Source: Fastidiosipila sp. (GTDB lineage Bacteria; Bacillota; Clostridia; Saccharofermentanales; DTU023). Taken from it: a DNA stretch of 64,000 bases. Within the stretch, counting starts at the first letter, position 1. Each line of letters begins with the position of its first letter. Where the stretch lies: the NCBI GenBank assembly GCA_012511175.1, contig JAAZGO010000010.1, positions 5,563-69,562 on the forward strand, written 5' to 3'. The notes under the pieces were generated by a model. That model saw nothing but the letters and a program-made list of their open reading frames with translations. It did no database searches and was not told where the DNA came from. Below are positions 181 through 58,153 of the stretch, piece after piece. The translations under genes and the position numbers were made by a program.

Positions 181-241
181 ATAGCTGCTTTGCCGGCAGC
201 AGGTTTTTGCGCTATGGTGACAGTTGTGTATATGGGGGCCT

Positions 242-11120: not shown

Positions 11121-11164
11121 GACGTTGCTCCTGAGCGATGCTTCCCAAAAGTATACGACATTAT

Positions 11165-11917
11165 TCAGGAAATTCCAGCGAGCAGCAGAACTCCTCCCAG
11201 AATGGAGAATAAACCGCTGATCAGTTGTACGCTGTATACGATGGTGACGAACTTCTCGGCGGGCACCTTGTAATGCAGCTTGTTGCCGAGAAGAAAACCA
11301 ATGATAACCAGGGGGAGTGCGTACAAAATCCAGGTCCAGGTTGATGCAGAATAGGCGCGGAGGAAGAAGATCCGGTAAACCATGGAAAAACTGATGGTCA
11401 TCACCCAGATGGCGGACATGGTCGCTCGGAAGACACTCTTGTCCTTGATCCGGGTCAGTGTGTAGACATTGATCAGGGGACCTCCCATGGAGAACATGGC
11501 CTCCACAATCGATCCCAGGGCAAGCGCTGTATAAACCGCCCAGCGTGGCAGGTCGGAGTCGTCTTTTTTTACCAGCCGCCGCCACAATTCGTGTCCGGCC
11601 ACCAGGGTCACCACCGCGCCCATGACCAGGCGGAGCAGCCATTCAAAGGGCCTGATTTGGCTGTAGAGGGCATAGCCGACGGGCAGGAAAGGAAGGATAC
11701 CGGCTGCGATGATCAGGAATTGGCGCCGGTCCATTTTCCTGATCTGTGTGACAAAGATAACCAGACAAAGGAAAAGTCCGGTGGTTGCCATCAGGTTGAC
11801 CGACAATTCCGTGCCGAGAACAAGTGAAAGGATGGGGATGCCGATCGAAGTGGATCCGAATCCGACAACCGTTTCGAGGATGAGCATGAAAAAAAGGATG
11901 ACAAAGAAATAGGTCAT
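11165..11917 (-). CDS. TSUP-family (TauE/SafE-like) permease, tandem paralog 2
   Basis: 250 aa, MTYFFVILFFMLILETVVGFGSTSIG. It is colinear with paralogs 1 and 3 (shared FSMGGPLINVY and RATM blocks). Confidence 0.8.
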   Translation of the reverse strand: MTYFFVILFFMLILETVVGFGSTSIGIPILSLVLGTELSVNLMATTGLFLCLVIFVTQIRKMDRRQFLIIAAGILPFLPVGYALYSQIRPFEWLLRLVMGAVVTLVAGHELWRRLVKKDDSDLPRWAVYTALALGSIVEAMFSMGGPLINVYTLTRIKDKSVFRATMSAIWVMTISFSMVYRIFFLRAYSASTWTWILYALPLVIIGFLLGNKLHYKVPAEKFVTIVYSVQLISGLFSILGGVLLLAGIS

Positions 11918-11947
11918 GGATCCTCTTGAACCTTGGTGCCTTCTTCC

Positions 11948-12691
11948 TTACATAAGCAGGTTGATGCCGCCGGCGATCGACAAAAGACCGCTGATAAGCT
12001 GAACGATGTAGACAAAATTGGCAAATTTCTCATTGGGGATCCTATGGTGCAGCTTGTTGCCGATAAAAAAGGCGATGAATACGAGGGGGATCGAGTAGAG
12101 TACGTTGGTCCAGATTTGACGCGTATAGGAGTGGAGCACGAACATCCGAAACATGAGTGAGATGGTATTGGTGATCAGCCAGACCATGACCATCGTCGCG
12201 CGGAACATGCTCTTGTCCCTGATCCGGGTCAGGACATAGACATTGATCAGCGCGCCTCCCATGGAGAACATGCCCTGAACTACGGCGCCGACACCAAAAG
12301 CGGAATAAACCAGCCATTGGGGCGGATCTCCGGCATCTTTTCGTATCATGCGCCGCCAGATTTCGCGGGAGGCAACAAAGGTGACAACCAGGCCCATGAT
12401 GAGGCGGAGGGCCCATTCCATGAGGCGAAGCTTGGCGAAGAGGAGATAGCCGATCGGCATGATGGGGATGACGGCGGCAAGAATGATAAGAAGCTCCCGC
12501 AGCTGCACTTTTTTGTACTGGGTGGCAGCGACAACCAGGCATAAGATCAAGCCGGCTGCGGAAAGGAGCGCGACTGATGCCTCCGTGCCGAGAGCCAGGG
12601 ACAGGATGGGGATGCCGATGGATGTCGATCCGAAACCCGTGATGGATTCGAGGATATGCATTAAAAAAAGGACAATAAAAAAATAAACCAC
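11948..12691 (-). CDS. TSUP-family (TauE/SafE-like) permease, tandem paralog 3
   Basis: The ORF is 11948-12730. By alignment with paralogs 1 and 2, the likely start is the GTG at 12689-12691, preceded by GGGGAAGGA (VVYFFIVLFLMHILESITGFGSTSIG). The ATG at 12730 is the alternative. Confidence 0.75.
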   Translation of the reverse strand: MVYFFIVLFLMHILESITGFGSTSIGIPILSLALGTEASVALLSAAGLILCLVVAATQYKKVQLRELLIILAAVIPIMPIGYLLFAKLRLMEWALRLIMGLVVTFVASREIWRRMIRKDAGDPPQWLVYSAFGVGAVVQGMFSMGGALINVYVLTRIRDKSMFRATMVMVWLITNTISLMFRMFVLHSYTRQIWTNVLYSIPLVFIAFFIGNKLHHRIPNEKFANFVYIVQLISGLLSIAGGINLLM

Positions 12692-12900
12692 AACCTGATT
12701 TTCCTTCCCCGCCAAATTATACAGCAGCAAACTGGAGAGGTGAGGTCAGACTGCTTTTGCCCAAGTGAGTCAGCTTGGCGTGTTGTCTGGCACAGTATGC
12801 CGGGACGGGTGAGTTTATTCTGTACAATACAAGTAGACAGGGTTGTCCGGGCAGAGTGAATTCTGTGCCGGACGCGATGAAAAAGCAAAGGAAAGAAGAT

Positions 12901-13656
12901 ATGGAAACGAAAGTAACCTTTATTTACGATTATAAAAGCATCGGACTGCCTGAAGAGATGACCGCAATCAGGCTCCCCGACATGGATGATTTTATTGAAA
13001 ACCAATGCCGGGGTCTGGCAGAGAAGCACAGCACCATTGAGCTGCCAAAGGGGCAGAGCCATCTGTTGACTGACGATATGGTCAAGAAAGAAGAGATCCC
13101 CGGGGTTGAAACAGTTGAACAATACCGCGAAATATTGAAGAAAGAAATCCCCGCGGCAGTGGTCTCGGAGCAGGTGCACGCCATTTTGATGAACTACCTC
13201 ATGCCTCAGCTGGTTGAGCGCAGTACCTTTGAGATCAATGATGAAGAGGCGACAAGGGAGAGCATGAAACGCCTCGAGGCCTTTGAAGCGAATGCCAAAG
13301 AGCGGGAACTGACCTTGGAGGAAGCTGGACAGAAAGATTTTGGCCTTCCCGCTATGGACGAGGGCCAGGTACGCCAATATGTCCTTTACCTGGGCCGGAC
13401 CAGCTTCCTTTTCAGGATTCTGGCACGTGAATACCTCCAGCGTCAGGGACAGATTTTCGATCTTGCTTCTTACTCCTCATACGTTAAGGAATTGACGGAA
13501 GTGTCGGGTATGCCGGAAGAGCAAGTCAGAGACCTGGTACCGGTCCATGTCTATATGGAAGAAGTCCCCGCCCTCACCATGCTGGATGAAATGTCCGCCT
13601 GGATTGCACAGCAGGTTAAACTGGAAAGTGAGAGTGAGCCCAAACCAAAAGACTAG
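12901..13656 (+). CDS. hypothetical protein (acidic, helical; weak resemblance to a trigger-factor C-terminal domain)
   Basis: The ORF is 12775-13656. The ATG at 12901 is preceded by AGGAAAGAAG. I recognise no firm domain. Confidence 0.4.
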   Translation: METKVTFIYDYKSIGLPEEMTAIRLPDMDDFIENQCRGLAEKHSTIELPKGQSHLLTDDMVKKEEIPGVETVEQYREILKKEIPAAVVSEQVHAILMNYLMPQLVERSTFEINDEEATRESMKRLEAFEANAKERELTLEEAGQKDFGLPAMDEGQVRQYVLYLGRTSFLFRILAREYLQRQGQIFDLASYSSYVKELTEVSGMPEEQVRDLVPVHVYMEEVPALTMLDEMSAWIAQQVKLESESEPKPKD

Positions 13657-13928
13657 CAGGGAACTTGACTGGCTGGCCCCGGTGGGCATGAAGAAAGCGT
13701 GATAAACTGAACGATATAAACGTAAGTGCGAACCTCTTTGACAGGAGAAACGTCTCTTTTGAAGAGATGAGACAGTGGGTGGAGTGCCCCCATTGTGGCG
13801 CAACCACCAGGCCGGATGAAGATGAAAACCGTGAATACTGCATGGGGATGACCGGCTGATCAGACAAAACGGCTGCTGGGCCGGTATTCTCCCATGTAAT
13901 CCGCTTGACGGTGAAGGGAGGACCAACC

Positions 13929-14726
13929 ATGATTTTGAAGACTTACGCGGTACCGCACCCGCCCATCATCCTGCCGGAAATCGGACGCGGGGAAGAGAAG
14001 AAGATTGCGAAAACGACTTCAGCCTTCCAGCGCATGGCGCGCGAAATTGCCGAGCTTCAGCCTGACACCCTTCTCATTTCTTCTCCACACGCACCCATGT
14101 TCTCTGACGGATTTTTTATCCTGGGAGGCGACCGGGAGTGGGGTGACCTCAGTGCGTTCGGTGTGCGGGGTGTACGCGAGGAGGCCGCCATTGACAAAAC
14201 CTTTGCCGATGAACTGCGGGGAGCCCTTCTCCGCCGTGCGCTCAGCGCGTCGGTTATGTCACTCGGCCGCAGGGGACTCGATCACGGCACCCTGATTCCG
14301 CTTCGTTTTATTCATCAGGAATACAGAGAATTTCGTCTGGTCCTGATCGGCCTGTCACTGCTGCCGGGGATGACGCACCGGGAAATCGGCCGGGCAGTAG
14401 CACAGGTTTCTGAAAAACTGGGGCGCAGGGCCGTCTATATTGCCAGCGGTGATCTGTCACATGTCTTGAAAGAAGATGGCCCCTACGGGTTCAAGCCGGA
14501 AGGCCCCCGCTTTGACGCAGAGATAGTCCGGATTTTCAATGAAGGGGATCTTGAAGGGCTCTTTGTCATGGATCCTCAAGTCCTGGAGCAAGCTGCCGAG
14601 TGTGGTCTTCGTTCCTTCCAGATGATGACCGGTACGTTGGACGGACGGCCCTATGAAGCCGAGCTCTACTCATACGAAGGTCCCTTTGGGGTCGGTTATG
14701 CCGTTGCATCCTTCACCCCCAACTGA
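13929..14726 (+). CDS. class III extradiol dioxygenase (LigB/Memo-fold) family protein, stand-alone version of the domain often fused N-terminally to AMMECR1
   Basis: The ATG at 13929 follows GAAGGGAGGA. MILKTYAVPHPPIILPEIGRGEE...SSPHAP...ASGDLSH is a typical LigB-type N-terminus with metal-ligand His residues. Confidence 0.6.
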   Translation: MILKTYAVPHPPIILPEIGRGEEKKIAKTTSAFQRMAREIAELQPDTLLISSPHAPMFSDGFFILGGDREWGDLSAFGVRGVREEAAIDKTFADELRGALLRRALSASVMSLGRRGLDHGTLIPLRFIHQEYREFRLVLIGLSLLPGMTHREIGRAVAQVSEKLGRRAVYIASGDLSHVLKEDGPYGFKPEGPRFDAEIVRIFNEGDLEGLFVMDPQVLEQAAECGLRSFQMMTGTLDGRPYEAELYSYEGPFGVGYAVASFTPN

Positions 14727-14736
14727 GGAGGCTGCC

Positions 14737-15258
14737 GTGACTTCAACAAATCCGTACACTGCGCTTGCCCGCGCGTCAATTGAATCCTATCTTCTGGAGA
14801 AGAGAATACTGAAAGTGCCGGAAGATACGCCACAGGAGCTGCTGAACAGACGTGCCGGTGCCTTTGTCACCCTCTATAAAGCCGGGTGTCTCCGGGGCTG
14901 TATCGGAACCATCGCACCAGTCAGGGAATCGCTTGCCCTGGAGATCATTTTTAATGCGGTGGCATCAGCCGCTGAAGATCCCCGCTTTCCTCCTGTCACC
15001 CGGGATGAACTGGAAGACTTGGTGATCAGTGTCGATGTGCTGGGCAAAGCCGAGCCGGTTGCGGGTGTGGACCAATTGGATCCGGCCCGTTATGGTGTCA
15101 TTGTCTCCGACCGTTACAGGCGGGGGCTTTTGCTTCCCCATCTCGATGGCATTGATACAGCGGAGGAGCAGGTGTCCATCGCCCTTCGGAAAGCGGGGAT
15201 TGGTTTTTCCGAGCCTTACCGCCTGGAACGCTTTGAGGTCGTTCGCCATGAAGAATGA
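14737..15258 (+). CDS. AMMECR1-domain protein (AmmeMemoRadiSam system protein A-like)
   Basis: The GTG at 14737 follows GAGGAGG and lies 10 nt after the upstream stop. The LRGCIGT motif is the conserved AMMECR1 core. Confidence 0.75.
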   Translation: MTSTNPYTALARASIESYLLEKRILKVPEDTPQELLNRRAGAFVTLYKAGCLRGCIGTIAPVRESLALEIIFNAVASAAEDPRFPPVTRDELEDLVISVDVLGKAEPVAGVDQLDPARYGVIVSDRYRRGLLLPHLDGIDTAEEQVSIALRKAGIGFSEPYRLERFEVVRHEE

Positions 15259-16093
15259 ACCTGACGATTCTGTCATTTGCAGGGTCTGTTGGCGCCATTG
15301 CCGCATCCGGGAAGGCGGACTTGGTTATTGCCGGGCGCGGACCGTTAAGGATGGTGTGGTCATTCCCGCGAATTACGGTCAGTTGACCAGCCTGGCCCTT
15401 GACCCCATTGAGAAGAAGCCGCTCTACTATTTTCACCCGGGCACTTACATTCTTTCTGCCGGCAGCTACGGCTGCAATATGGCCTGTCCTTTTTGCCAGA
15501 ATTATGAGATTGCCCGTGAGGCCGCGGCTGCACGGCGTACGGTGAGGGTCAGTCCGGAGGAACTGGTTGAAAAAGCGCTGGCTTACAGGGATCGCGGCAA
15601 CATTGGCATTGCCTTTACCTACAACGAACCTCTTGTCGGATACGAGTATGTTCGTGACACATCCATGCTTGCCAGGGAAGAGGGCCTTGAAACGGTCGTC
15701 GTCACCAACGGACAGATTGAGGAAGAGCCACTTCAGGAATTGCTTCCGTTCATTACAGCATGGAATATCGATCTGAAAGCTTTTACCGATGAAGGCTACC
15801 GGAAACTTGGCGGCCGCCTGGACGTTACGCTTCGGACCATCAGGCGGGTGTCGGAGGTGTCGCACCTTGAAGTAACCACTCTTGTCGTGCCTGGATTATC
15901 GAACGATGAGGAAGAGATGAGGAGAGAAGCAGCTTTTTTGGCTTCAATCGATCCCCGGATCCCGCTTCATCTGTCGCGCTACTTTCCCTGCTACCAGTAT
16001 GATGCACCCGCAACATCGAAGGAAACGCTGTACAGGCTCCGTGACGTCGCCAAAGAATCACTGGAGCGGGTCAACCTCGGCAATATCCATTAA
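15248..16093 (+). CDS. AmmeMemoRadiSam-system radical SAM enzyme
   Basis: The ATG at 15248 overlaps the AMMECR1 stop. An N-terminal Cys-rich segment (CRVCWRHCRIREGGLGYC) is followed by the radical-SAM CxxxCxxC motif (CNMACPFCQNYE). Confidence 0.8.
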   Translation: MKNEPDDSVICRVCWRHCRIREGGLGYCRARTVKDGVVIPANYGQLTSLALDPIEKKPLYYFHPGTYILSAGSYGCNMACPFCQNYEIAREAAAARRTVRVSPEELVEKALAYRDRGNIGIAFTYNEPLVGYEYVRDTSMLAREEGLETVVVTNGQIEEEPLQELLPFITAWNIDLKAFTDEGYRKLGGRLDVTLRTIRRVSEVSHLEVTTLVVPGLSNDEEEMRREAAFLASIDPRIPLHLSRYFPCYQYDAPATSKETLYRLRDVAKESLERVNLGNIH

Positions 16094-18033
16094 TCGAAAA
16101 CAGGCCTGTCTTCACCCAGTTCCCGCGGGTCAATGGAAACCATTTCAAAGATTTCAAGCGCCTGCTCAATGAGCTCGCGCAGACCCGGGACTCGTTCAGG
16201 ATCGACCGGCAGGGTGATTGCCGGCTGATCCCCGGAAGCCGCTGACCCGGGAGGCAGTTCCAGGCTGATATGAATCAGGCAGGGGGCCCCGGCGACCAGC
16301 CCGGCCAAAGCACGGTCATCTTGCTCCCTCAGGGATAAAGCGATGTAACGGGTCATATCCTGCATCAGGGATTCAAAGGGATAATAATCTTCCTCCCTGG
16401 CGGCAATCAACGGCTGGATCCATGTTTCTTTGTCTTCGGCGGATGCGTGGGGCGCAACCTCCAGGTTGAAGGCAACATGGAACTTGTCAGTTGCCGCATA
16501 ATCGCTCAGCTCGGCCATGAAAAAGCGGTCATTCTGTCTGAGCAGCTGCAGGTAGTCGGGATTGTTGGCATACAGGGGAAGGGTCAGCGACCGCTCACAG
16601 CTTCGCCCGTCTTTTGTTTCAAGGATCAGGTGTGTCTCAGGCAAATGGGGGTAATAGATCTCATTTCCGCCGTAGGGAAGGATGAAAGGATTTTTAAGCC
16701 GCACAAAATCACGTGACTGCCCCTTGCTGGACAGGGTGCGGGGCAGGTCGAGGCCAGGATTATCAGGCGAAAGGACCGAGCGGTAAATTTCGCCTATGAG
16801 GGCAAGATCCTGTTCTGCCGTCAATTCGAACAGAAAAGGCCTGCTTTCCTCGCGCCCAAAGGGTGAAAAATAAGCTCCTGAATAGTAAATTCCTGCCCGT
16901 TTCAAGTTGTCAGCTTCCGGCAGTCTGGTTGAAAAGCCGCCGGCACCCGTCATGACGATTGAAAGCCAGACGGCGTAAGGCAAGGCTGCCGCCAGTGCGG
17001 CAGCAACCAAGGACCGCCAGCGGATTTTGCCCTTGTTGCCGATCAGGTTGAAGACCCAAAGTGAAAGTGAGAAGCCAAGCCCCGTGCCGATTAGGAAGGG
17101 CACGGGAGAAAGGTTGACCGGCGTGAACTCGGAATCCGTCGTCCATACCCGCAGGTAGTGGGCCGCGTAGCCTCCCAGCAGGGACAGGGTGACCACGCCC
17201 ATCCATTGAATCAGCAGGAAGGGCCAATTGGCGGAGCCCCCGCCTGAGCGATAGCCTGCCTGTCTGGCGCGGAACAAAAAGAATGCAAGACAGGCCATGC
17301 CCAGAGTCATCAAGCCCAGGGGCAAGTGATGGTGCGCCAGCCCTCCTGTAAAAATGGCGGGAGAGAAAAGCTGAAATAATACGACCAGCCAGGAAGACGG
17401 TTCTTCCAGGGCCGTCACAAGCGGGTTGATGAAGCCCGGCAAAAACTGACTGGTGGCATCACTGAAAGAAAAAAGCATGAGCGGCCAGATGATGTTGAGC
17501 ATGACGAAGAAACCGACGGCGGTCAGGGTTTTTTCCGTGATCAGGTAACAGACCTCCAGAAGAAAAAAGAAATAGAAGATCCTGATGAGGAGGCCGGCAT
17601 AACTGATCCAAATATCAGCGGGAGAGGCAGTATAGGCATACCACCCGGGATCAGTGCGGGGCAGCAGCCTGGCGAGCATGGTATTCAAGCCCATGATGAC
17701 AAGCGAAGGCCCGGCCAGATGTACCAGGGCACTCAGGTTGAGCCAGGCGAAGAGTTTCGGCCGGTTTGAGGGCAGTGAAAAATAGAAATCCGTCCGATCC
17801 ATCCGGTGGATAAAGCCAAAGAATTGATGGACCAGGACCAGGCTCATGACAATGAGCACGAAGCCGTTAAAAAAATGAGTGGTAAAGGGCCAGAAGCCCC
17901 GTTCCGACAGCAGCGGAAGGGTGGTGAAGATGAAGAGGAAAATCAGAGGCAGGAACCAAAGTGCGGCTGGTTTCCTCCAGACCAGGGAAGCCGTCACTCG
18001 ATTCGCTTTCACTTGCAGGTCAAACATTTTCAT
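16090..18033 (-). CDS. large polytopic membrane protein (ABC-2-type permease-like N-terminal half plus ~270-aa non-membrane C-terminal domain)
   Basis: 647 aa. There are about 10 hydrophobic segments in the first ~370 aa and a hydrophilic tail. It is the last gene of the YtrA-ABC operon. Confidence 0.5.
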   Translation of the reverse strand: MKMFDLQVKANRVTASLVWRKPAALWFLPLIFLFIFTTLPLLSERGFWPFTTHFFNGFVLIVMSLVLVHQFFGFIHRMDRTDFYFSLPSNRPKLFAWLNLSALVHLAGPSLVIMGLNTMLARLLPRTDPGWYAYTASPADIWISYAGLLIRIFYFFFLLEVCYLITEKTLTAVGFFVMLNIIWPLMLFSFSDATSQFLPGFINPLVTALEEPSSWLVVLFQLFSPAIFTGGLAHHHLPLGLMTLGMACLAFFLFRARQAGYRSGGGSANWPFLLIQWMGVVTLSLLGGYAAHYLRVWTTDSEFTPVNLSPVPFLIGTGLGFSLSLWVFNLIGNKGKIRWRSLVAAALAAALPYAVWLSIVMTGAGGFSTRLPEADNLKRAGIYYSGAYFSPFGREESRPFLFELTAEQDLALIGEIYRSVLSPDNPGLDLPRTLSSKGQSRDFVRLKNPFILPYGGNEIYYPHLPETHLILETKDGRSCERSLTLPLYANNPDYLQLLRQNDRFFMAELSDYAATDKFHVAFNLEVAPHASAEDKETWIQPLIAAREEDYYPFESLMQDMTRYIALSLREQDDRALAGLVAGAPCLIHISLELPPGSAASGDQPAITLPVDPERVPGLRELIEQALEIFEMVSIDPRELGEDRPVFD

Positions 18034-18049
18034 TCGATTCCCGCTTTCT

Positions 18050-19165
18050 TTACCAGGGTGTGGCAGCAGGTGCCATACATAGGCAAACCAGGCCGGTCAT
18101 CAGGGCAAAGAACGTAAGTCCTCCCAGAATAGGAAGGATTTCTTTCGCGATCTTTGTTTTTCGCAGCTGCTTGCCGCTGACGACGGTGGACACGACCTGT
18201 CCCAGCAGGGCTCCCGCGACGAGGCCCATGTAAAAGACAGGTGAACGCAAAGTGCTTTGTTCTCCGGCAAACAGGCCATGGACGAAACTGCCGAGCAGGG
18301 TTCCCCCCAACAAGACAAAGAAGGGTTGCAGGACAGGGTACCATGGAAGCTGCCCGTTTCGAACGCCGGCGTATTCAGCGGGCCTTTTTTTGTAAAAAAA
18401 CCAGGCCATGATGCTCCAGAAAACAATCATGACCAGGGATTGCCAGGCTGAAACAGGGAGTAAGATGGGGATAAAGAGGCGGGCAGCTGGGGCCAGGAGC
18501 CAAAGAATGTCCGTTTCCAGATCGGTAAGCCGGTTGGTCATCCCCAGTATATGAAAGACAGAGGAGGCCCAGGCGAATTGAATACCCACGCAAGTGAGAA
18601 CGGCATCAAAGAGGGTGCCTGACAAGGCCAGGAAAACGAGGCTGAAGGCAAGCAGTTCCAGCGTTGCAGCGAAAAGTCTCAAATAGGCTGTCGAATAGGT
18701 GAAAAAATGTGCTATCTTCCCCCAGCCCGCGAAGACGGCAAAGGTCACTGCGGCGTTGACGGCAAAAATGAAGCAGAAGGCTGCCAGGAGCGCCAGTGCC
18801 CTGCCGAGAAACTGGCGGTTACTTCCCAAGGGCATGCTGGATTCCCTGTCGACCGCATTTTGAAGATAAAAGGTCCTAAATCCGGCACTGGCCAGCACAG
18901 CAACTGCCACAAGAGAGATCAGGGCCAGGAGTAAATGAAGCGGCCAGAGCACCTGATTAAGATTCTGCTCCCTGAAGACAGGCTCAAGGAAATTGTAAGA
19001 CGAAACCAGTGTCAGGTAGTTGTCCCTGCCGATGATAAGAAGCGCAATGGGCATGGCCAGTAAAAACAGGAATGAGAAGAGCAGCATCAGCGAACGCATC
19101 CGCTGGAAGGACTTGCCAAAAACCCAGCCAAGTCCCGGGGCGGTTTGAGTGATTGCCGTCATCAT
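18050..19165 (-). CDS. polytopic membrane protein, putative ABC-2-type permease component
   Basis: 371 aa and highly hydrophobic. The RBS is AAGGGGGAA. It lies directly downstream of the ABC ATPase. Confidence 0.5.
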   Translation of the reverse strand: MMTAITQTAPGLGWVFGKSFQRMRSLMLLFSFLFLLAMPIALLIIGRDNYLTLVSSYNFLEPVFREQNLNQVLWPLHLLLALISLVAVAVLASAGFRTFYLQNAVDRESSMPLGSNRQFLGRALALLAAFCFIFAVNAAVTFAVFAGWGKIAHFFTYSTAYLRLFAATLELLAFSLVFLALSGTLFDAVLTCVGIQFAWASSVFHILGMTNRLTDLETDILWLLAPAARLFIPILLPVSAWQSLVMIVFWSIMAWFFYKKRPAEYAGVRNGQLPWYPVLQPFFVLLGGTLLGSFVHGLFAGEQSTLRSPVFYMGLVAGALLGQVVSTVVSGKQLRKTKIAKEILPILGGLTFFALMTGLVCLCMAPAATPW

Positions 19166-46244: not shown

Positions 46245-46290
46245 ATAATGAGAATGATGAGACAATGAAAGCGTCAGGGAGGTGGCGGTC

Positions 46291-46824
46291 ATGCAGGACA
46301 TTCTTCTAGTGGTTGATATGCAAAACGATTTTGTAGACGGTTCCCTCGGGACACCGGAGGCCAGGTCAATTGTCTCCAATGTGGTCAAAAAAATGAAAAA
46401 GTTCGATGGTCCGGTTCTTTTCACCAAGGATACACACCAGGCAGACTACCTGGAAACTCAGGAAGGCCGGCTGCTCCCCGTGGAGCATTGCATCCGCGGA
46501 ACCGAGGGATGGGAAATTGTCGGGGAAGTTGCTCAAGCACGTCAAGGGAAGGTGATCGAGAAAGATACCTTTGGCGCCCGGGATCTCCCCTCCACGCTGA
46601 TGGAAATGAATGAGGAGGAGCCTATCCGGTCCATCACCCTGGTTGGCCTTTGTACCGACATCTGCGTCATTTCAAACGCCATGCTGATCAAGGCATTCTT
46701 ACCGGAGGTCGAAATCAAGGTGGACGCCAGCTGCTGTGCAGGCGTCACGCCGGAAAGTCACAAAATTGCCCTGGAAGCCATGAAAGTCTGCCAGGTCAGT
46801 GTGACTGGCGAACCGCAGGGCTAG
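46291..46824 (+). CDS. cysteine hydrolase / isochorismatase-family protein (nicotinamidase-like)
   Basis: MQDILLVVDMQNDFV...LVGLCTDICV shows the D-K-C catalytic triad context of the isochorismatase superfamily. Confidence 0.75.
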   Translation: MQDILLVVDMQNDFVDGSLGTPEARSIVSNVVKKMKKFDGPVLFTKDTHQADYLETQEGRLLPVEHCIRGTEGWEIVGEVAQARQGKVIEKDTFGARDLPSTLMEMNEEEPIRSITLVGLCTDICVISNAMLIKAFLPEVEIKVDASCCAGVTPESHKIALEAMKVCQVSVTGEPQG

Positions 46825-47180
46825 CCGCCCGGCTTAAGTTTGTCGTAGTCCCCTTGCCGGTAACCGACAAGCACCTGATCCTCGAAAATGAAAACCGGCC
46901 GCTTAACCAGCATGCCGTCTGAGGCAAGGATCTCGATCATTTCTTGATCCGTCATCAGGGGAAGCTTATCTTTCAGCTTCAGCTCACGGTATTTCATGCC
47001 GCTGGTATTGAAAAAGGCCTTAACCCCCTTGCCGCTTTTGGCAATCCAGCCGGTCAGTTCCTCTCCGGTCGGCCTGTCTTTTTGAATATCGCGGAAGGTG
47101 TAGGGAATGTCATGTTCATCAAGGAAACTCCTTGCTTTACGGCAGGTCCCTCATTTGGGATAGCAGAGAAACAGATTCAT
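46821..47180 (-). CDS. ArsC/Spx-family thioredoxin-fold protein, predicted selenoprotein (in-frame UGA at codon 10, UxxC motif)
   Basis: The gene is not in the ORF track because TGA at 47151-47153 splits it. Read-through translation gives MNLFLCYPK-U-GTCRKARSFLDEHDIPYTFRDIQKDRPTGEELTGWIAKSGKGVKAFFNTSGMKYRELKLKDKLPLMTDQEMIEILASDGMLVKRPVFIFEDQVLVGYRQGDYDKLKPGG*. This is colinear with the ArsC/Spx/YffB family along its full length (CxxCRKA, FFNTSG, YREL, DGMLxKRP, VGY). The ATG overlaps the upstream stop (ATGA) and follows GGAAAGGAG. selC and selB are in the same window. Confidence 0.8.
47120..47134 (-). promoter_or_regulatory. candidate bacterial SECIS hairpin
   Basis: CAAGGA-gtt-TCCTTG is a perfect 6-bp stem starting 16 nt after the UGA. 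The G-first apical loop begins about 22 nt downstream, inside the usual bSECIS window. Confidence 0.4.
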
Positions 47181-48664
47181 GGAAAACTCCTTTCCGTGTG
47201 TTCAATTTTTACGAGTGAGCGCGCTCTTTCATAGTCCTCCGGTGTATCAAGATCAAAACCGGCTGAATGATCATGGCTGATGACTTCGATCACCGCATCT
47301 TCATGGTCCTGAATCACCTGCCTCCCGCCAAGATCACCTGCAAGTGACGACAGCTCCCGGTAGAAGCTGCGGTCAAAGAGCACAGGTGAGGACCGCCTGC
47401 CCTCCCTTACCGGAATCATGATTTTCCCTGTCTCAAATTCCTCCATCAGGTGCCGCAGCAGGAGAGGGGAAAGAAAAGGCTGATCCCCCGGTACATAAAA
47501 ACAGGCCGTGCTTTCAGGGGCCAGGTGCTGCGTCCCGACAGCCACCGATCTGCCCTGGCCTTCGCAATATCTGTCATTGGTGACAAAAGTCAGATTTGTC
47601 CCGCCTTTCAGCGGCCTGATCGCCGTTTCAATGGTTTCACGGACCCGTTGAGATTCAAAACCCGTGACAACCACAAGATCGGGGATACCGGCTGAGAGCA
47701 CCCGGCTCAAGGTCCGGGCGATGACGGTTTGGCCTCCCAGGGGCAGGAGCAGCTTGTTGAGTCCGCCCATCCGCTCTGACATGCCGGCAGCCATGATGAC
47801 CGCAGAGAAGGGTGCGGGCTGCCCGCTGTTTTTGGATTGCCCCCAATAGGTCTTATGCTCTCCCCGATCCAGGCCTTTGAAAAAGACAGCACTGATCCGG
47901 CTGTTTTCAAGTACCCGCCCCGCCAGTTCATGGAAGAACCCTTGGGTCCTCTGCTCTTTGTCCAGGCAATCCGCCTGGTTGAAAACGACAGCAATTTTGC
48001 TGGTTGGCGGGATGCCCTTGAAAAAATGACCGGAGTTCAAGAGCGAAAGAAGATTGGAAATTTGGATGGGTTTCCCGGCTTCAAGGCCGGTGGCCGCAGA
48101 GAAGAGGGGAGCGCGGTGGACCACCGGTTCGGCCAGGGCTTGCCCGATGGCGGAAAGACCGAAGAGTATCAGGGTCAGATCAGTGGTTTTAGGTATGACC
48201 GGTTCGTGTTCCGCGTGGGCCTTAAGCGGTTTTCTCTTTGAGCCGTCAGCTTCACAAAGGATGAGGGTGTCCTTGTCACCTGCCTCTCTCTGTTCCCGCA
48301 CCCAGGCATCCAGTTGATCCCTGTCAAGTCCGCGGTGCTTGCCGGCGATATCCTCACAGGCGGGGCCCAGCCAGAGGCCGGATCCGGCAGGAGGCGCGGC
48401 CGTAACACGGGCCAGGGCCGGATTCTTCTTTTGCTTGTGTGAAAGGGGCGGCGCGACTTCCCTGCCTGCCCCGGGGAGGCCTAAGGCGGTGGTTGAGGTC
48501 AGGATGGAGCGGGGCCGTATTGCGGCATCAAAAAGCTCGACCAGGGTGGTCGTCTTGCCGCCCCCGCCGATGGCGCTAACCAGGAAAGGCCGCGGATCGA
48601 GTTGCGCATCCTGCCTGATCAGCGAGCGGACATAGGCCTCGATCGTCAGATTGGCTGCGGTCAT
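47177..48664 (-). CDS. yqeC: fusion of YqeC-type selenium-dependent hydroxylase accessory protein (N-terminal) with MocA/YgfJ-type molybdenum cofactor cytidylyltransferase (C-terminal)
   Basis: The ATG at 48664 follows AAGGAG; the longer ORF to 48844 overlaps yqeB. The N-terminal half has VSAIGGGGKTTTLVELF...ILTSTTA (YqeC P-loop). The C-terminal half has FSAVIMAAGMSERMGGLNKLLLPLGGQTVI...YVPGDQPFL (MobA-like NTP transferase). Confidence 0.75.
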   Translation of the reverse strand: MTAANLTIEAYVRSLIRQDAQLDPRPFLVSAIGGGGKTTTLVELFDAAIRPRSILTSTTALGLPGAGREVAPPLSHKQKKNPALARVTAAPPAGSGLWLGPACEDIAGKHRGLDRDQLDAWVREQREAGDKDTLILCEADGSKRKPLKAHAEHEPVIPKTTDLTLILFGLSAIGQALAEPVVHRAPLFSAATGLEAGKPIQISNLLSLLNSGHFFKGIPPTSKIAVVFNQADCLDKEQRTQGFFHELAGRVLENSRISAVFFKGLDRGEHKTYWGQSKNSGQPAPFSAVIMAAGMSERMGGLNKLLLPLGGQTVIARTLSRVLSAGIPDLVVVTGFESQRVRETIETAIRPLKGGTNLTFVTNDRYCEGQGRSVAVGTQHLAPESTACFYVPGDQPFLSPLLLRHLMEEFETGKIMIPVREGRRSSPVLFDRSFYRELSSLAGDLGGRQVIQDHEDAVIEVISHDHSAGFDLDTPEDYERARSLVKIEHTERSFP

Positions 48665-48701
48665 TCCCGCTCCTTTCACAGCGGTCGGGGAGCAATCGCT
48701 T

Positions 48702-49493
48702 CTATTCCCCAAAATGCGCCAGGATGGCCTCCAGCACACCGCCCGCGATGGTGCGGCCCTTGTCGCTGATGGTCCGGGTGTAGTCGGCATCCCCGCGCGG
48801 GTCGACATCGCCCAGTTTCTGTCCTCTTCTAACCTGGAAGCCATCCGCGATCAGGCCGCGGACGACACCTGAAATGACGGTTTTGACCGGCACCTCGCCA
48901 ACCATCAAAATGACATCGCCTGCAACGACCTGGTCGCCGATTTCGTGGAGATTGCGTGTGACACCCTCCCGGGGGGCTCTCAGGACGCGATCCTTGTCGA
49001 CGCCCTCAATGTTGCCCGGGATTCCGGTGTTGGCAAGGGCTTGCCCCTGATGGACCAGGCGGCCCAGATAATGCCCGCGTTTGGTTTCGATCACCACGTG
49101 GGCTTGCTTTCCCGCTTCGATGCCGGGACCCAGGCCGATGACCAGGGGAGCCCAGGAGAGATCGTAGTCGGGTGTTCGCTTGCTAAGAGTAGCGTCAATG
49201 AAAACGTCCGGTTTCAAAAAATCCCGGACTTGCCGGTCGGGGAGGGTGAGAACGGGGATTAATCCGTCCCGGATGGCGGGTTCGATTTCTTCCAGTGAGC
49301 GGATGTGGCGCGAGGTCACGCCCTCAATTGTCCAGTCACCCTCATAGATGGCGTTGCAATAGGAAACGGTCCGCCGGACACAGGAAGGCGAGGGGAGGTC
49401 GCAGACGACCACGCGGAATCCCGATTGGCGGAGTTTGTGAATAACGGCAGAGGCTAAATCGCCGCCTCCCCGGATAAGGATGGTGTGTTTCAT
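48702..49493 (-). CDS. yqeB: YqeB/EF2563-family selenium-dependent molybdenum hydroxylase system protein
   Basis: 263 aa. MKHTILIRGGGDLASAVIHKLRQSGFRVVVCDLPSPSCVRRTVSYCNAIYEG matches the short Firmicutes form of YqeB. The RBS is AAGGAG. Confidence 0.75.
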   Translation of the reverse strand: MKHTILIRGGGDLASAVIHKLRQSGFRVVVCDLPSPSCVRRTVSYCNAIYEGDWTIEGVTSRHIRSLEEIEPAIRDGLIPVLTLPDRQVRDFLKPDVFIDATLSKRTPDYDLSWAPLVIGLGPGIEAGKQAHVVIETKRGHYLGRLVHQGQALANTGIPGNIEGVDKDRVLRAPREGVTRNLHEIGDQVVAGDVILMVGEVPVKTVISGVVRGLIADGFQVRRGQKLGDVDPRGDADYTRTISDKGRTIAGGVLEAILAHFGE

Positions 49494-49529
49494 GGTTGAC
49501 TCCTTTATTTGACTTGGCAGTGTCGGCTA

Positions 49530-50720
49530 TCAGTCGGCAAGGCTGTCAAAGTATCCCTGGATCAAAACGACAGGCGTTCCCTTGTCTCCGCTTCCCGATG
49601 TCAGGTCTGCCAGCGAGCCGAGCAGGTCGGTCAACCGGCGCGGGGTGGTGCCTCCGGCATTGGTCTCAAAGTCCAGATCCTCTTCTTTGTCGGCAATTGC
49701 CTGGCGCACAGCCTCTTCAAGCTCCTGGCCCGAGAGGTCGGCAAATTTGCTGTCAGTCAGATATTTCAATTTCAATTCCCTGGGCTTGCCGCCAAGGCCA
49801 TCTGTAAAGGCAGGAGAAACAACAGGGTCGGCCAGTTCCCAGATCTTGCAGACGGGATCTTTGAAAGCGCCGTCGCCGTAAATCATCACTTCAATGTGCT
49901 TCCCTGTCCTTTCCAGGAAGAGACCGGAAAGGGTGTTGACAAACAGTTTGCCGGATCGCGGAAAAAGTTTCACGATTTCTTCGCTGGCCTTGTTGCTGCC
50001 GAGTAATCCAAATTCCTCATGGAAACCGCTTCCGTCAACAGACTGAGTCAAGATGTCATCCAGGCCCAGAACCCGTTTGGCCCCGGCACGCCGCAAGAGC
50101 CGTTTGGTTCTTTCTCTTGCGTGGACGTCACAGACAAGGGTGAAGGGGGTGTAGCGGAGGACAACCAGCGGGTCATTGGCCAGGATGATCTCAGCTTCGC
50201 AGCCCTCGCTCCGGATGGTTTCGCGATAGAAATCAACGTAATCAACGCCGGTGAAGGTGTGGCGGTTCACACCGAAGAGTTTGCGGTAACGCATTTCGGA
50301 AAGGCAGTCCTTCAGCGGATCAATCCCCTTTTCATCCATCTGGTCCAGATCCATCAGGCTGTTGCCGACCTCATCGGAGGGATAGCTGAGCTGCAGCACA
50401 ATTTTTTTTGCGCCACGGGCAATCCCGCGCAGATTAACCGCAAAACGGTTTCTGCTCAGGATGGGAAAAACAAGGCCGATTTCGCCTTCAGGAAATTTCC
50501 TTCTGATGTCTTTGGCGATGTCATCGCAGCTGGCGTAATTGTTCTCGGCCCGGGCCACAACTGACTCCGTTACTGCAACCACATCCCTGTCGTGCAAATC
50601 GAATCCTTCGTCACGGGCGGCGAGTAAAACGCTGTCAAGAATGATTTCCGCCAGCTTATCGCCGCTCTTGATAATGGGGGTCCGGATTCCTCTCGAAGTT
50701 GTTCCTGTGCGTCTGATCAT
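49530..50720 (-). CDS. CofE-like (F420-0:gamma-glutamyl ligase family, COG1478) protein, long Firmicutes form
   Basis: The ATG at 50720 gives MIRRTGTTSRGIRTPIIKSGDKLAEIILDSV...HDRDVVAVTESVVARAE. This is the CofE-type N-terminal pattern (xIPxIKxGDDLAxxI...DGDIxVVxxKIVSKAEG). Confidence 0.6.
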   Translation of the reverse strand: MIRRTGTTSRGIRTPIIKSGDKLAEIILDSVLLAARDEGFDLHDRDVVAVTESVVARAENNYASCDDIAKDIRRKFPEGEIGLVFPILSRNRFAVNLRGIARGAKKIVLQLSYPSDEVGNSLMDLDQMDEKGIDPLKDCLSEMRYRKLFGVNRHTFTGVDYVDFYRETIRSEGCEAEIILANDPLVVLRYTPFTLVCDVHARERTKRLLRRAGAKRVLGLDDILTQSVDGSGFHEEFGLLGSNKASEEIVKLFPRSGKLFVNTLSGLFLERTGKHIEVMIYGDGAFKDPVCKIWELADPVVSPAFTDGLGGKPRELKLKYLTDSKFADLSGQELEEAVRQAIADKEEDLDFETNAGGTTPRRLTDLLGSLADLTSGSGDKGTPVVLIQGYFDSLAD

Positions 50721-50830
50721 GGTCTGGGCGGAATAAACCGCCTCTCCTTTCAGCGAGCCCGTCGGGGCATGCGGCCTCCTGTAATCTTCCCGCCGGGGGA
50801 GCCGCTCCCGCCGAGTCAATCGGAAAGCGG

Positions 50831-50878
50831 AAAAATACGCGCCAACCCTGTTGGCCAACGGCTGGAGGGCCGGCGCGT
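50831..50878 (-). terminator. probable terminator downstream of selC
   Basis: On the minus strand, ACGCGCC...GCCAAC-agg-GTTGGC-GCGT is followed by ATTTTT (nested stems 50836-50842/50872-50878 and 50841-50855). Confidence 0.5.
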
Positions 50879-50884
50879 TTCAAC

Positions 50885-50981
50885 TGGCGGAAGCATGTGA
50901 GAATCGAACTCACCCGGGAGGCTCCTAACCCCCCTCAACGGTTTTGAAGACCGCGGGGCACACCAGAACCCATCTGCCTCC
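50885..50981 (-). tRNA. selC: tRNA-Sec (anticodon UCA)
   Basis: The 97-nt minus-strand sequence is GGAGGCAGATGGGTTCTGGTGTGCCCCGCGGTCTTCAAAACCGTTGAGGGGGGTTAGGAGCCTCCCGGGTGAGTTCGATTCTCACATGCTTCCGCCA. The acceptor is GGAGGCA/TGCTTCC (7 bp plus a G-A) and the anticodon stem-loop is GCGGT-CTTCAAA-ACCGT. There is a long variable arm (GGGGGG-ttaggag-CCTCCC), a T arm GTGAG-TTCGATT-CTCAC, a discriminator G and an encoded CCA. Overall it is very similar in layout to E. coli selC. Confidence 0.9.
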
Positions 50982-51043
50982 ATGCAGTATTGTCATGGTT
51001 GCCAGGTGATTTGTCAACTTTGAGAAGAGGAGGATTGCGTGGG

Positions 51044-51847
51044 TTACAGGCTGTCTGTCTGCCGCCTGCCCTTGAAAATTATCATCAGAAGGCCGAAGGC
51101 AAAAACGAAAATTCCGATGAATTGCGAGGTCGACATCCCGAGAAGGAAACCTCTGGCTTCATCGCCTCTCCAAAACTCCAGGATGAACCGGATCAGGGCG
51201 TAGAGACAGAGGTATAGGTAGAGAAGCTTTCCTTTAAACCGGGATTTTCGCAAAAGCCACCAGAGAAAGAAGAAGAGGGCAAAGTTCAAAAAAGATTCAA
51301 CCAGCTGAATGGGAAAGCGCCGGACTCCATTTGCCTCCTCCACGACCGACCGGGTGTAAATGAAACCGATTTTGCACTCCACCCCGTAACAGCAGCCCCC
51401 CAAAAAGCAGCCGATCCGTCCGAAGCCGTGAAAAAGGGGAATGGCGGCTGCCCCGATGTCGGAGTAGGCATCGAGATCCAGTTGCTTTCTCTTGCCGTAG
51501 GCCATCCCGGCCAGAATCCCGATGATGAGGCCCCCGTAGAAGACAGCGCCCCCGAAAAGGTATTGCAGGTACTGGATCAGGACGGAAAAAGAAGGAATTT
51601 TTCGAATAATGGCAAGGAAGAGCCGCAGTTCCCCGAAATTGACAAGCGCGTAGGTCAGGTGGCTGCCGGCCCAGCCGGCTGACACAGCAACCAGCAACAT
51701 GGAAATCATGGTGACCGGGTCGAGCGGGGAGCGCCTGGCCTGGCGGTAGGCGAAAGTGCCTGCCATGAGGACTCCTGCCAGGGACATCAAGGCATAAAGG
51801 CTGATCATTTTCCCAAATAAATAAAAGTAAGGCAACATAGGATCCAA
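51044..51847 (-). CDS. lgt: prolipoprotein diacylglyceryl transferase
   Basis: GRIGCFLGGCCYG and a polytopic profile identify it. The start is uncertain (TTG at 51847 or ATG at 51838). Confidence 0.85.
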   Translation of the reverse strand: MDPMLPYFYLFGKMISLYALMSLAGVLMAGTFAYRQARRSPLDPVTMISMLLVAVSAGWAGSHLTYALVNFGELRLFLAIIRKIPSFSVLIQYLQYLFGGAVFYGGLIIGILAGMAYGKRKQLDLDAYSDIGAAAIPLFHGFGRIGCFLGGCCYGVECKIGFIYTRSVVEEANGVRRFPIQLVESFLNFALFFFLWWLLRKSRFKGKLLYLYLCLYALIRFILEFWRGDEARGFLLGMSTSQFIGIFVFAFGLLMIIFKGRRQTDSL

Positions 51848-56635: not shown

Positions 56636-58153
56636 ATGTCCGACAATAGTGGAGCCCGCCCAGGTTTGGCGGAAGTGGAGGGATGCGCTTTGAAACGCAC
56701 AGTTGTCTTAATCCTGATCCTGGCTGCAGTCCTGGTTTTGACGCTGTCGTGCGGTTCTCAGTCTATTGACGTCAGGGAGCTGGCCATGGTCCGGGTCACC
56801 GGGGCCGACGGTTTCGCCAGCCTTTTTGCCGGGACAGACAAGGCACGGATCGATTTCTGGCTTGAGCAGGAATCGGCCAGACTTGAAGAGTCTGATGAGA
56901 AAGGTTTTCAGCGCCTTTTCCAACGTGAGGCGGTACTCAGTTCACTGGTCTTTACTCCCGATAAAAGGGCCGGTTTGAAAAACGGGGATGAAGTGCTCAT
57001 CCGCATCGATTATGACCGTCAGCTGGCAAAAGAGGCGGGCCTTCGTTTCCGGAATGTCAGGTTCAAGTACAAGGTTGAAGGCCTCGAGGAAGCGGTTCCC
57101 ATTCCCATCGAGCAAGGTGTGGACCTTGCCTTTTCGGGCTACGATGGGCAGGGTCGCTGCTCCCAGGTATTGTCAGGCGATGTCGACCGATTCAGGCAGG
57201 GTTTCGAATTTGTCTTCACCCAGGGCAGCGCGAATCTGTCAAATGGCGATTGGGTTGAACTCAAGGTGATTCCCGATAACCTGTTCCTGACTTCCAAGGG
57301 AAGGATTGCGCGCGAAACCACGTTATCGTTTGAGGTGAAGGGGCTTCCGCCCATGACCGAGATTGATCTTTTTGAAGACCTGGTTTTAATCTTTGACGGC
57401 GTCAGTGACCAGGGGATTCTCTCTTTTGACACCACCCGATTGCCGGCTGACTGGGTGGAGGGCGGCCCTCAGGAGGAAACGCCCGTCCGTTTCACCGCCG
57501 TTCCGTCCAGGGGCCTTTCGAACGGAGAACTTGTCAGGGTCGAAGCCATGGTTGACGCGGGCTGGTTTGCCGAACGTGGCCTGAAAGTTGAAGCCACGAC
57601 CAGGGAGTACCGGGTCAGCGGACTGAAGGAATACCCCCGGAACCTGGATGGCGTGGATCTGATGCCTTTGTTCAAAAAAATTGCACCCTGGCTTGAAAAG
57701 GATATGACCAGCCGGCTGGATATGAATTACTGGAATGATGATTTCAAAACAGGAGAGCCGGTCAGCAGCTGGGATTACGACCATCTGACCGGCGTGACGC
57801 GCATCTTCTACGGTTACAACCAGGCCAACCGTGCCCGCAACTTCGTTGCGATTCTTTACAAAACAGCGGTGAGCGGTGTCTGTCTGGATACGGTTCCTTA
57901 CCAGTCTTTTTATGAAAGGGGAGACCAGGTAGAATCGACGCTTTATCTCCTCTATCTGATTGATGAAATCATGTACGATCGCCCTGATGTGGAAGATTTT
58001 CGGGAAATTAAACTGGTTATGCACGGTGATGCTGAACTTGATGTAATCACTGAATTCAAAAATCGCTACGGCGGGGATCATGTACTGATTGTTGATGTTG
58101 CGGTTCCGGATCAGGTGGTCAGCGGTGACGCGGTTTCCCTGCCGACTCCCTGA
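56636..58153 (+). CDS. hypothetical secreted protein / lipoprotein
   Basis: 505 aa. A TM/signal segment ends in LTLSCGSQ, a possible lipobox. I recognise no domain. Confidence 0.45.
   Translation: MSDNSGARPGLAEVEGCALKRTVVLILILAAVLVLTLSCGSQSIDVRELAMVRVTGADGFASLFAGTDKARIDFWLEQESARLEESDEKGFQRLFQREAVLSSLVFTPDKRAGLKNGDEVLIRIDYDRQLAKEAGLRFRNVRFKYKVEGLEEAVPIPIEQGVDLAFSGYDGQGRCSQVLSGDVDRFRQGFEFVFTQGSANLSNGDWVELKVIPDNLFLTSKGRIARETTLSFEVKGLPPMTEIDLFEDLVLIFDGVSDQGILSFDTTRLPADWVEGGPQEETPVRFTAVPSRGLSNGELVRVEAMVDAGWFAERGLKVEATTREYRVSGLKEYPRNLDGVDLMPLFKKIAPWLEKDMTSRLDMNYWNDDFKTGEPVSSWDYDHLTGVTRIFYGYNQANRARNFVAILYKTAVSGVCLDTVPYQSFYERGDQVESTLYLLYLIDEIMYDRPDVEDFREIKLVMHGDAELDVITEFKNRYGGDHVLIVDVAVPDQVVSGDAVSLPTP

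Follow-up and report, generated by a model that had tools for sequence, protein, structure and literature searches.

A 64,000-nucleotide stretch of DNA from the uncultured Fastidiosipila sp. (assembly GCA_012511175.1, contig JAAZGO010000010.1; the whole stretch is called the window here) carries on its minus strand the gene for the selenocysteine (Sec) tRNA, selC, followed by four protein genes. These encode a protein of the CofE fold, the selenium-dependent molybdenum cofactor (Moco) accessory proteins YqeB and YqeC, the latter fused to a MocA-like domain, and a small Sec-containing protein of the ArsC family. The comparison of yqeB loci described below makes it probable that the adjacency of the ArsC-like gene and the Moco genes is a case of clade-specific synteny, and that the ArsC-like protein is a general oxidoreductase, not a dedicated step in the selenation of Moco. 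The features of the cluster are as follows.

51017..50989, minus strand: sigma-70-like promoter of selC, TTGACA-17-GACAAT (consensus scan, 10/12 matches)
50981..50885, minus strand: tRNA-Sec (selC), anticodon UCA (ARAGORN; Rfam RF01852, 70.8 bits against a gathering score of 47)
50877..50829, minus strand: intrinsic-terminator-like hairpin after selC, 12 base pairs (bp), GC-rich, with a U-run (terminator scan)
50720..49530, minus strand: F420_ligase-family (CofE-fold) protein, 396 amino acids (aa) (PF01996, 171.8 bits)
49493..48702, minus strand: YqeB, selenium-dependent molybdenum cofactor accessory protein (TIGR03309, 321.6 bits against 220, full length)
48664..47177, minus strand: YqeC fused to a MocA/YgfJ-like MobA-family nucleotidyltransferase, 495 aa (TIGR03172, PF19842, PF12804)
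47180..46821, minus strand: ArsC-family (3GKX-type) glutaredoxin-fold selenoprotein, 119 aa, motif U10-G-T-C13 (PF03960, TIGR01617)
47153..47151, minus strand: in-frame UGA for Sec at codon 10 (where homologues have the first Cys of their CxxC)
47120..47152, minus strand: element resembling a selenocysteine insertion sequence (SECIS), either a 32-nucleotide (nt) stem-loop from the G of the UGA or a nested hairpin at 47134..47120 (folding)

The four protein genes after selC are co-oriented. The first and second are 36 nt apart, the second and third 37 nt, and the third and fourth overlap by ATGA; the gene order, strand and spacing given by an earlier note on this DNA are exact. The same note had seen markers of Sec decoding and of the selenium cofactor side by side in one tight cluster, and the gene identities bear this out. 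For YqeB, the model score is matched by a 100% identical protein that carries the YqeB name in a Bacillota metagenome-assembled genome at NCBI; a sequence search of the PDB with YqeB gave nothing meaningful. In the fusion protein, the YqeC part scores 127.5 bits against a cut-off of 73.05 with TIGR03172 (residues 29-247) and 100.9 against 27.6 with PF19842, and the nucleotidyltransferase part scores 125 bits with the MobA-like family PF12804 (residues 288-456). The names YqeB, YqeC and MocA-like that had been proposed from the letters of the sequence are in agreement with these scores. The MocA/YgfJ equivalog model TIGR03310 falls below its threshold (148.9 bits against 186.45), and the domain is best described as MocA-like, not as a certified MocA equivalog. 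Proteins of the MocA family make the cytosine dinucleotide form of Moco.

Distribution of the block among yqeB loci

We compared 167 yqeB loci. Eighty were obtained by scanning a YqeB alignment against one genome per GTDB species, a metagenome scan with a YqeB alignment of the clade defined here gave 80 further loci, six came from look-ups of individual YqeB relatives, and the last is the window. An earlier metagenome scan, with the YqeC::MocA fusion as a single-protein query, had yielded 87 pattern matches and no confirmed relatives. Compared loci bear "L" numbers (e.g. L081, L002), paired numbers (L083/84) standing for one lineage. The clade consists of the 19 loci with a YqeB at least 58% identical to that of the window, and 148 loci lie outside it. 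ArsC-like genes were sought with a hidden Markov model built from 120 homologues (E <= 0.05) over 19,378 six-frame open reading frames (ORFs), with UGA read through, and the flanks covered around non-clade yqeB genes amounted to 7-10 kb. Some absences on short metagenome contigs are contig ends, and L001 and L099 were left out of the absence counts.

The block selC, cofE-like, yqeB, yqeC::mocA is found in all 19 clade loci and in none of the 148 others. The members of the clade are Clostridia from anaerobic digesters, relatives of Mageeibacillus, Fastidiosipila and Saccharofermentanales. Matches to the ArsC-family model are confined to the window and nine other clade loci (0/148 elsewhere), and no selC lies near yqeB in the 148 non-clade loci. 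The recurrence of the ArsC-like gene beside yqeB and yqeC, which the earlier note had proposed to look for in other genomes, is thus limited to one clade. The fusion of yqeC and mocA is more widely distributed: it is a single ORF in 17/17 clade loci with both halves on the contig and in six loci outside the clade (L019, L022 from Moorella naiadis, L062, L125, L149 and L164), while yqeC is followed by an unfused mocA in 18 further loci.

The flanks of the block are syntenic in the clade too, with addA upstream and convergent isochorismatase, tuf, fusA, rpsG and rpsL genes downstream. Since the whole region is syntenic, the adjacency of the ArsC-like gene and yqeB amounts to approximately one evolutionary observation. 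Moreover, the ArsC-like gene is missing from five clade lineages that keep yqeB and yqeC::mocA (L083/84, L100, L101/102, L103 and L003), and in three of these (L100, L101/102, L103) the slot is empty, with mocA converging directly on the isochorismatase gene. The ArsC-like gene is therefore dispensable for the retention of yqeB and yqeC::mocA. In a neighbour-joining tree built from the CofE-like protein and YqeB, which is to be taken as a rough guide only, the Sec forms are monophyletic, and the Sec clade and the Cys form each have lineages without the ArsC-like gene as sisters, which requires at least two losses or else two gains. Outside the clade, Cys homologues of the ArsC-like protein with 56-61% identity occur in three unrelated neighbourhoods devoid of yqeB, yqeC or Moco genes. 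Our search of the published literature found no link of ArsC-family proteins to yqeB or yqeC.

The clade loci also differ from other yqeB loci in what surrounds the accessory genes. As the earlier note had stated, no xanthine dehydrogenase (XDH)-type gene lies in the window: Pfam scans of the 64 kb found none, nor did they find selD, selA, selB, ygfK or ssnA, and tblastn with four confirmed XDH-family large subunits gave no match in the window. Among loci covering at least 10 kb, an XDH-family Mo-binding subunit is encoded in the flanks of 28 of 78 non-clade yqeB loci, whereas none of 13 clade loci, the 64-kb window included, has one. Of the markers of the selenium-dependent hydroxylase trait, yqeB and yqeC are thus present, and selD and the XDH-family subunit are absent from the window and the clade loci. 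Because of this difference in counts, yqeB and yqeC::mocA can be said to be detached from any hydroxylase gene at the clade loci, and the region is an example of selC, yqeB and yqeC::mocA being packaged without such genes. Two of the lineages without the ArsC-like gene carry other Moco genes beside the yqeB block. In L083/84 (10413-14325) a sulfatase gene and then MoaB-type/MoaE, moaC and moaA genes (Pfam) follow the block; in L003 (16014-20544) there is a nonribosomal-peptide-synthetase-like gene and then a gene with a MoCF_biosynth domain (Pfam), further ORFs having been read by eye as modABC, moaC and moaA. To judge from these neighbours, the block appears tied to molybdenum cofactor metabolism.

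In C. difficile, growth on xanthine and urate requires yqeB, as it does selD, whereas deletion of yqeC has no phenotype (PMC11448449). The authors of that study describe the maturation genes of selenium-dependent hydroxylases as uncharacterised, and no protein has been assigned to the delivery of selenium to Moco (PMC11448449); our search of the published literature on this maturation found nothing beyond it.

It seems likely, then, that the block in these uncultured digester Clostridia sets side by side four things that would have evolved separately. The first is selC, with its own conserved promoter and terminator hairpin. The second is a putative enzyme of the CofE fold, from a widespread and highly conserved family whose members stand alone in other bacteria, and the third the selenium-Moco accessory genes yqeB and yqeC::mocA. 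The fourth, at the 3' end, is a small ArsC-family CxxC redox protein whose N-terminal nucleophilic Cys presumably became Sec within the clade. Like its Cys relatives, the ArsC-like protein would be a general selenol/thiol-disulfide oxidoreductase, and the conversion from Cys to Sec would have taken place once the gene was already in its slot. Co-transcription with the selenium-cofactor genes would then reflect inherited gene order, perhaps with some benefit from co-expression, and not a relay function.

Some observations weigh against this interpretation. The ArsC-like gene is a tight member of the operon (through the ATGA overlap in the window, a 28-nt gap in L081 and similar spacing in relatives), and it persists in about eight species-level lineages that span 67-100% YqeB identity. 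The change from Cys to Sec occurred in situ, 4 kb from selC and beside selenium-cofactor genes, which is a suggestive coincidence, and there is the step of selenium delivery to Moco for which a protein has yet to be assigned (PMC11448449). From the neighbourhood, the earlier note had proposed the UxxC protein as a candidate for a selenium relay or reductase in the maturation of the selenium-molybdenum cofactor. In this alternative the U/CxxC ArsC-like protein would be dedicated to that role for YqeB and YqeC::MocA, at least in the clade. It is favoured by the common strand, the overlap or short gap and the lack of a detected terminator between the ArsC-like gene and yqeC::mocA, by the persistence of the gene, with either Sec or Cys, in about eight lineages, by the place of Sec at the nucleophile position, where it aligns with the catalytic Cys12 of R773 ArsC, and by the unassigned selenium-insertion step (PMC11448449). 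The distribution argues the other way: no ArsC-family gene lies within 7-10 kb of yqeB in the 148 non-clade loci, five clade lineages keep yqeB and yqeC::mocA without it, homologues 56-61% identical are found in unrelated contexts, and the adjacency is embedded in a wider synteny that makes it effectively a single observation. The comparison that the earlier note had itself asked for does not support its proposal, and we consider a dedicated relay unlikely; it keeps a small share of probability because operon membership has lasted through about eight lineages and because the selenium-insertion step is unassigned.

There is a slim chance that the clade recruited an ArsC-fold U/CxxC protein as a selenium-handling redox partner of YqeB and YqeC::MocA. 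Such a partner could reduce the selenium donor, or carry a selenenyl-sulfide or selenide adduct toward the Mo centre. If this were true, the operon would be the first handle on the insertion of the labile selenium ligand, and an ArsC-like selenoprotein serving in selenium-Moco maturation would be a candidate for the step that lacks an assigned protein. As a general mechanism, a relay of this kind is unlikely in view of the comparative evidence.

The ArsC-like selenoprotein

The assignment of the last gene to the ArsC family is clear, with 67.7 bits against a cut-off of 24 for PF03960 and 112.4 against 75.05 for TIGR01617. Its in-frame UGA is kept in seven lineages (the window, L096/97, L098, L085/86, L002, L104 and L180), with conserved residues on both sides. 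The six Sec forms found in the syntenic slot besides that of the window read M-N-L-F-x-C-Y-P-x-U-x-T-C-R-K-A, are preceded by a Shine-Dalgarno sequence and have a frame open to a conserved C-terminus. The syntenic orthologue in L081/82 has Cys at the position of the UGA, and 119 of the 120 best homologues have CxxC, the remaining one being a Sec form cut short by the gene caller. The ATGA overlap with yqeC::mocA is peculiar to the window; relatives have short gaps (28 nt in L081), each with a Shine-Dalgarno sequence. From this spacing, the selenoprotein gene is almost certainly co-transcribed with yqeC::mocA.

Two overlapping structures follow the UGA. In five of six Sec forms the long stem-loop folds at -15 to -16 kcal/mol, and it has no counterpart in three Cys forms. 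Nested in it is a hairpin, CAAGGA-G(G/U)U-UCCUUG (GUU in the window), with a loop that begins 23 nt past the UGA; this hairpin tolerates the only substitution of the window, as this falls in the loop. The nested hairpin fits the bacterial SECIS geometry reported by Zhang and Gladyshev better than the long stem does. Of the codons with an invariant amino acid, those in the stretch 10-23 keep the same third base in 8 of 11 cases, as opposed to 7 of 50 elsewhere (Fisher p = 2.5e-4). We found no covariation in the SECIS-like hairpin of the Sec forms, as these are too similar to each other, and the long stem and the nested hairpin are therefore not told apart.

On this evidence the last gene is predicted to be a bona fide selenoprotein gene, with a UGA that is decoded by means of the SECIS hairpin directly behind it. 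The Sec-containing thioredoxin-fold protein that the earlier note had recognised is thus upheld by the seven lineages with UGA, the Cys orthologue, the CxxC homologues and the SECIS-like hairpin. The other way to read the UGA is as a true stop, the ArsC-like frame then being a decaying pseudogene or a 58-aa remnant. Public gene calls imply as much, since they give a fragment of 58 or 46 aa or omit the gene (L176, L177 and L085 included). Yet seven lineages conserve both the Shine-Dalgarno sequence and the nine codons ahead of the UGA (M-N-L-F-x-C-Y-P-x), the frame is open to the conserved C-terminus, and homologues have Cys where the UGA stands. In addition, synonymous sites in the SECIS-like hairpin are constrained, and selC is at a distance of 4 kb. 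The conservation and the SECIS evidence lead us to reject a pseudogene, the probability of which is negligible. The gene is instead a clean and well-supported example of conversion from Cys to Sec in situ within a narrow clade, and of a selenoprotein that public annotation reduces to a fragment of 46-58 aa or leaves out.

At its 3' end the ArsC-like gene is met by an isochorismatase-family gene (46282-46824, plus strand), which converges on it with a 4-nt overlap of its stop codon (9 nt in L081).

Within the ArsC family, the best PDB relative of the protein is 3GKX (E 2e-35), which together with 2M46 and 3FZ4 forms a group at E 2e-35 to 2e-26. Spx and YffB are distant (E ~1e-11) and R773 ArsC itself is marginal (E 7e-4). 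The protein scores well below the cut-off for the glutaredoxin-coupled arsenate reductases (TIGR00014, 42.1 bits against 106) and for the curated NCBIfam selenoprotein family ArsC_rel_Se_1 (NF041106, 25.6 against 85); its ArsC subgroup is a different one from that family. Its best NCBIfam match, TIGR01617 (112.4 bits against 75), bears the name "Spx/MgsR family RNA polymerase-binding regulatory protein", and the CxxC-type motif at its N-terminus occupies the position that this motif has in Spx. These two points could suggest a redox-sensing regulator of the Spx/MgsR type, which would control the operon, or else a stress regulon, through binding to RNA polymerase. The Spx-specific models all fail, however (NF002459, 54.5 bits against 123; NF009885, 42.2 against 152; NF009210, 36.5 against 159), the protein, at 119 aa, has no counterpart of the C-terminal extension of the Spx proteins (131-132 aa), and it is far closer to 3GKX, 2M46 and 3FZ4 than to Spx by the E values given above. 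An Spx identity is rejected on the model cut-offs, and a regulatory role of this type is highly improbable. The 3GKX-type oxidoreductase remains the preferred assignment.

selC, the CofE-fold gene and other genes of the window

At the head of the cluster, selC is at the same position in 16/16 clade loci whose contig extends that far. Both hexamers of its promoter are kept in 10 of 11 related loci in the alignment, and the terminator hairpin of seven lineages keeps all 12 outer pairs, some of which have changed on one side or on both (compensatory changes; RNAalifold). An Rfam search at E <= 1 over 46700-51100 returned tRNA-Sec alone; the leader matched neither a Moco riboswitch nor one of any other kind. 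A simple scan of the stretch from the selC terminator to the start of the cofE-like gene detected no promoter, and transcription of the protein genes may therefore start at the selC promoter and read through the terminator.

The leader just upstream of the cofE-like gene (50721-50760, minus strand) contains a small conserved hairpin, GCGG and CCGC separated by 4-7 nt, between an invariant Shine-Dalgarno sequence, GAAAGGAGA, and the ATG. A compensatory variant of this hairpin occurs in L002. The hairpin leaves the Shine-Dalgarno sequence about 22 nt from the start codon, and it may be a bridge that brings the two together, or else regulatory.

The product of the cofE-like gene matches PF01996 over its full length, around an inserted segment of about 170 aa. 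The CofE equivalog models score far below their thresholds (TIGR01916, 40.5 bits against 180.65; NF009809, 42.4 against 274) and match residues 14-69 alone. An AlphaFold model (mean predicted local distance difference test score, pLDDT, 71.6) has the CofE of A. fulgidus as its sole significant PDB match (E 6e-6, 12-15% identity), and a sequence search of the PDB gave no matches. The label "cofE-like" of the earlier note is therefore sound at the level of family and fold and does not extend to CofE orthology. Homologues with 64-67% identity occur in Lacrimispora indolis, Proteiniclasticum, Lachnospiraceae and Bacteroidales, and in both contexts examined the homologue (~65% identity) stands alone among unrelated genes. 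To our knowledge, Lachnospiraceae and Bacteroidales are not F420 producers, and the gene is in this respect a pointer to a very conserved CofE-fold family in bacteria that we do not know to make F420. A search of the published literature found no characterisation of this long CofE-like form. Public gene calls lengthen the protein to 442 aa (49530-50858, minus strand), with a TTG start inside the selC terminator (L176, L177, L085); homologues show the ATG start that gives 396 aa to be the correct one.

The cofE-like gene adjoins yqeB in all 19 clade loci, at a distance of 36 nt in the window, and is found in the flanks of none of the 148 non-clade yqeB loci. Its constant place between selC and yqeB would be explained if the ligase itself took part in the selenium-Moco pathway of the clade, for example by modifying the pterin or a cofactor intermediate. 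Along with the adjacency, the lack of a separate detected promoter between the two genes, the lack of an F420 context in these organisms and the failure of the CofE equivalog models are in line with this idea. It is nonetheless very unlikely, given that the family stands alone with unrelated neighbours at 64-67% identity in Lachnospiraceae, Proteiniclasticum and Bacteroidales, and that none of the 148 other yqeB loci has the gene in its flanks. We regard the cofE-like gene as encoding a widespread, conserved putative enzyme that happens to lie between selC and yqeB in this clade.

About 40 further ORFs of the 64 kb were surveyed by Pfam scans. Three genes for TauE/SafE-family (sulfite exporter-like) membrane proteins lie within 13 kb (224-961, plus strand; 10374-11642 and 11948-12730, minus strand), one of them with an N-terminal extension of about 170 aa. 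LigB-like, AMMECR1 and radical-SAM genes in overlapping tandem (13905-16093, plus strand) look like a trio of the AmmeMemoRadiSam type, the radical-SAM gene of which is not MoaA. Three large ORFs of 647, 371 and 505 aa, at 16090-19165 (minus strand) and 56636-58153 (plus strand), have no Pfam match at E <= 1e-5; those of 647 and 371 aa adjoin genes for an ABC ATPase and a GntR regulator.

Comparison with known systems

The protein encoded next to selC shares the family PF01996 with CofE, the F420-0:gamma-glutamyl ligase (PDB 2PHN, 2G9I and 7ULD), which is its sole significant fold match; it differs from CofE in its low identity (12-15%), its insertion of about 170 aa and its scores below the equivalog cut-offs.

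The window also holds part of the yqeB/yqeC/ygfJ (mocA) set of the selenium-dependent molybdenum hydroxylases (Haft & Self 2008, PMC2276186; Johnstone & Self 2024, PMC11448449). As in that set, YqeB and YqeC pass their TIGRFAM models, a MobA-family nucleotidyltransferase is attached, and the clade relatives L083/84 and L003 carry Moco genes beside the block. The 13 clade loci covering at least 10 kb, the window included, differ from it in having no nearby hydroxylase gene and in the fusion of yqeC and mocA. They differ further in that, in no other yqeB locus examined but in the clade, selC, the CofE-fold gene and the ArsC-like selenoprotein gene are attached to the set.

As for the selenoprotein, the PDB entries 3GKX, 2M46 and 3FZ4 ("putative ArsC family", from structural genomics) are of the same fold family and of similar length (~115-120 aa), with CxxC at the same position and, for 3GKX, about 50% identity. 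Those are Cys proteins, none of them known to have a link to selenium or Moco. Sec-containing relatives have been catalogued since 2006-2008 as ArsC-like or "Arsenate reductase 2 (cd03032 ArsC_Spx), UxxC" families (Zhang et al. 2006, PMC1794560; Zhang & Gladyshev 2008, PMC2398784; reviewed in PMC9312934). The window protein has in common with these the glutaredoxin-fold ArsC family, the replacement by Sec of the first Cys of CxxC, a redox-active residue, and the fact that Cys homologues far outnumber Sec forms. It belongs, however, to the 3GKX-type (TIGR01617) subgroup and does not match ArsC_rel_Se_1, and it comes from digester Clostridia, whereas the catalogued forms are from Deltaproteobacteria or marine samples. 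Since such families are already on record, the selenoprotein of the window adds a member to a known kind.

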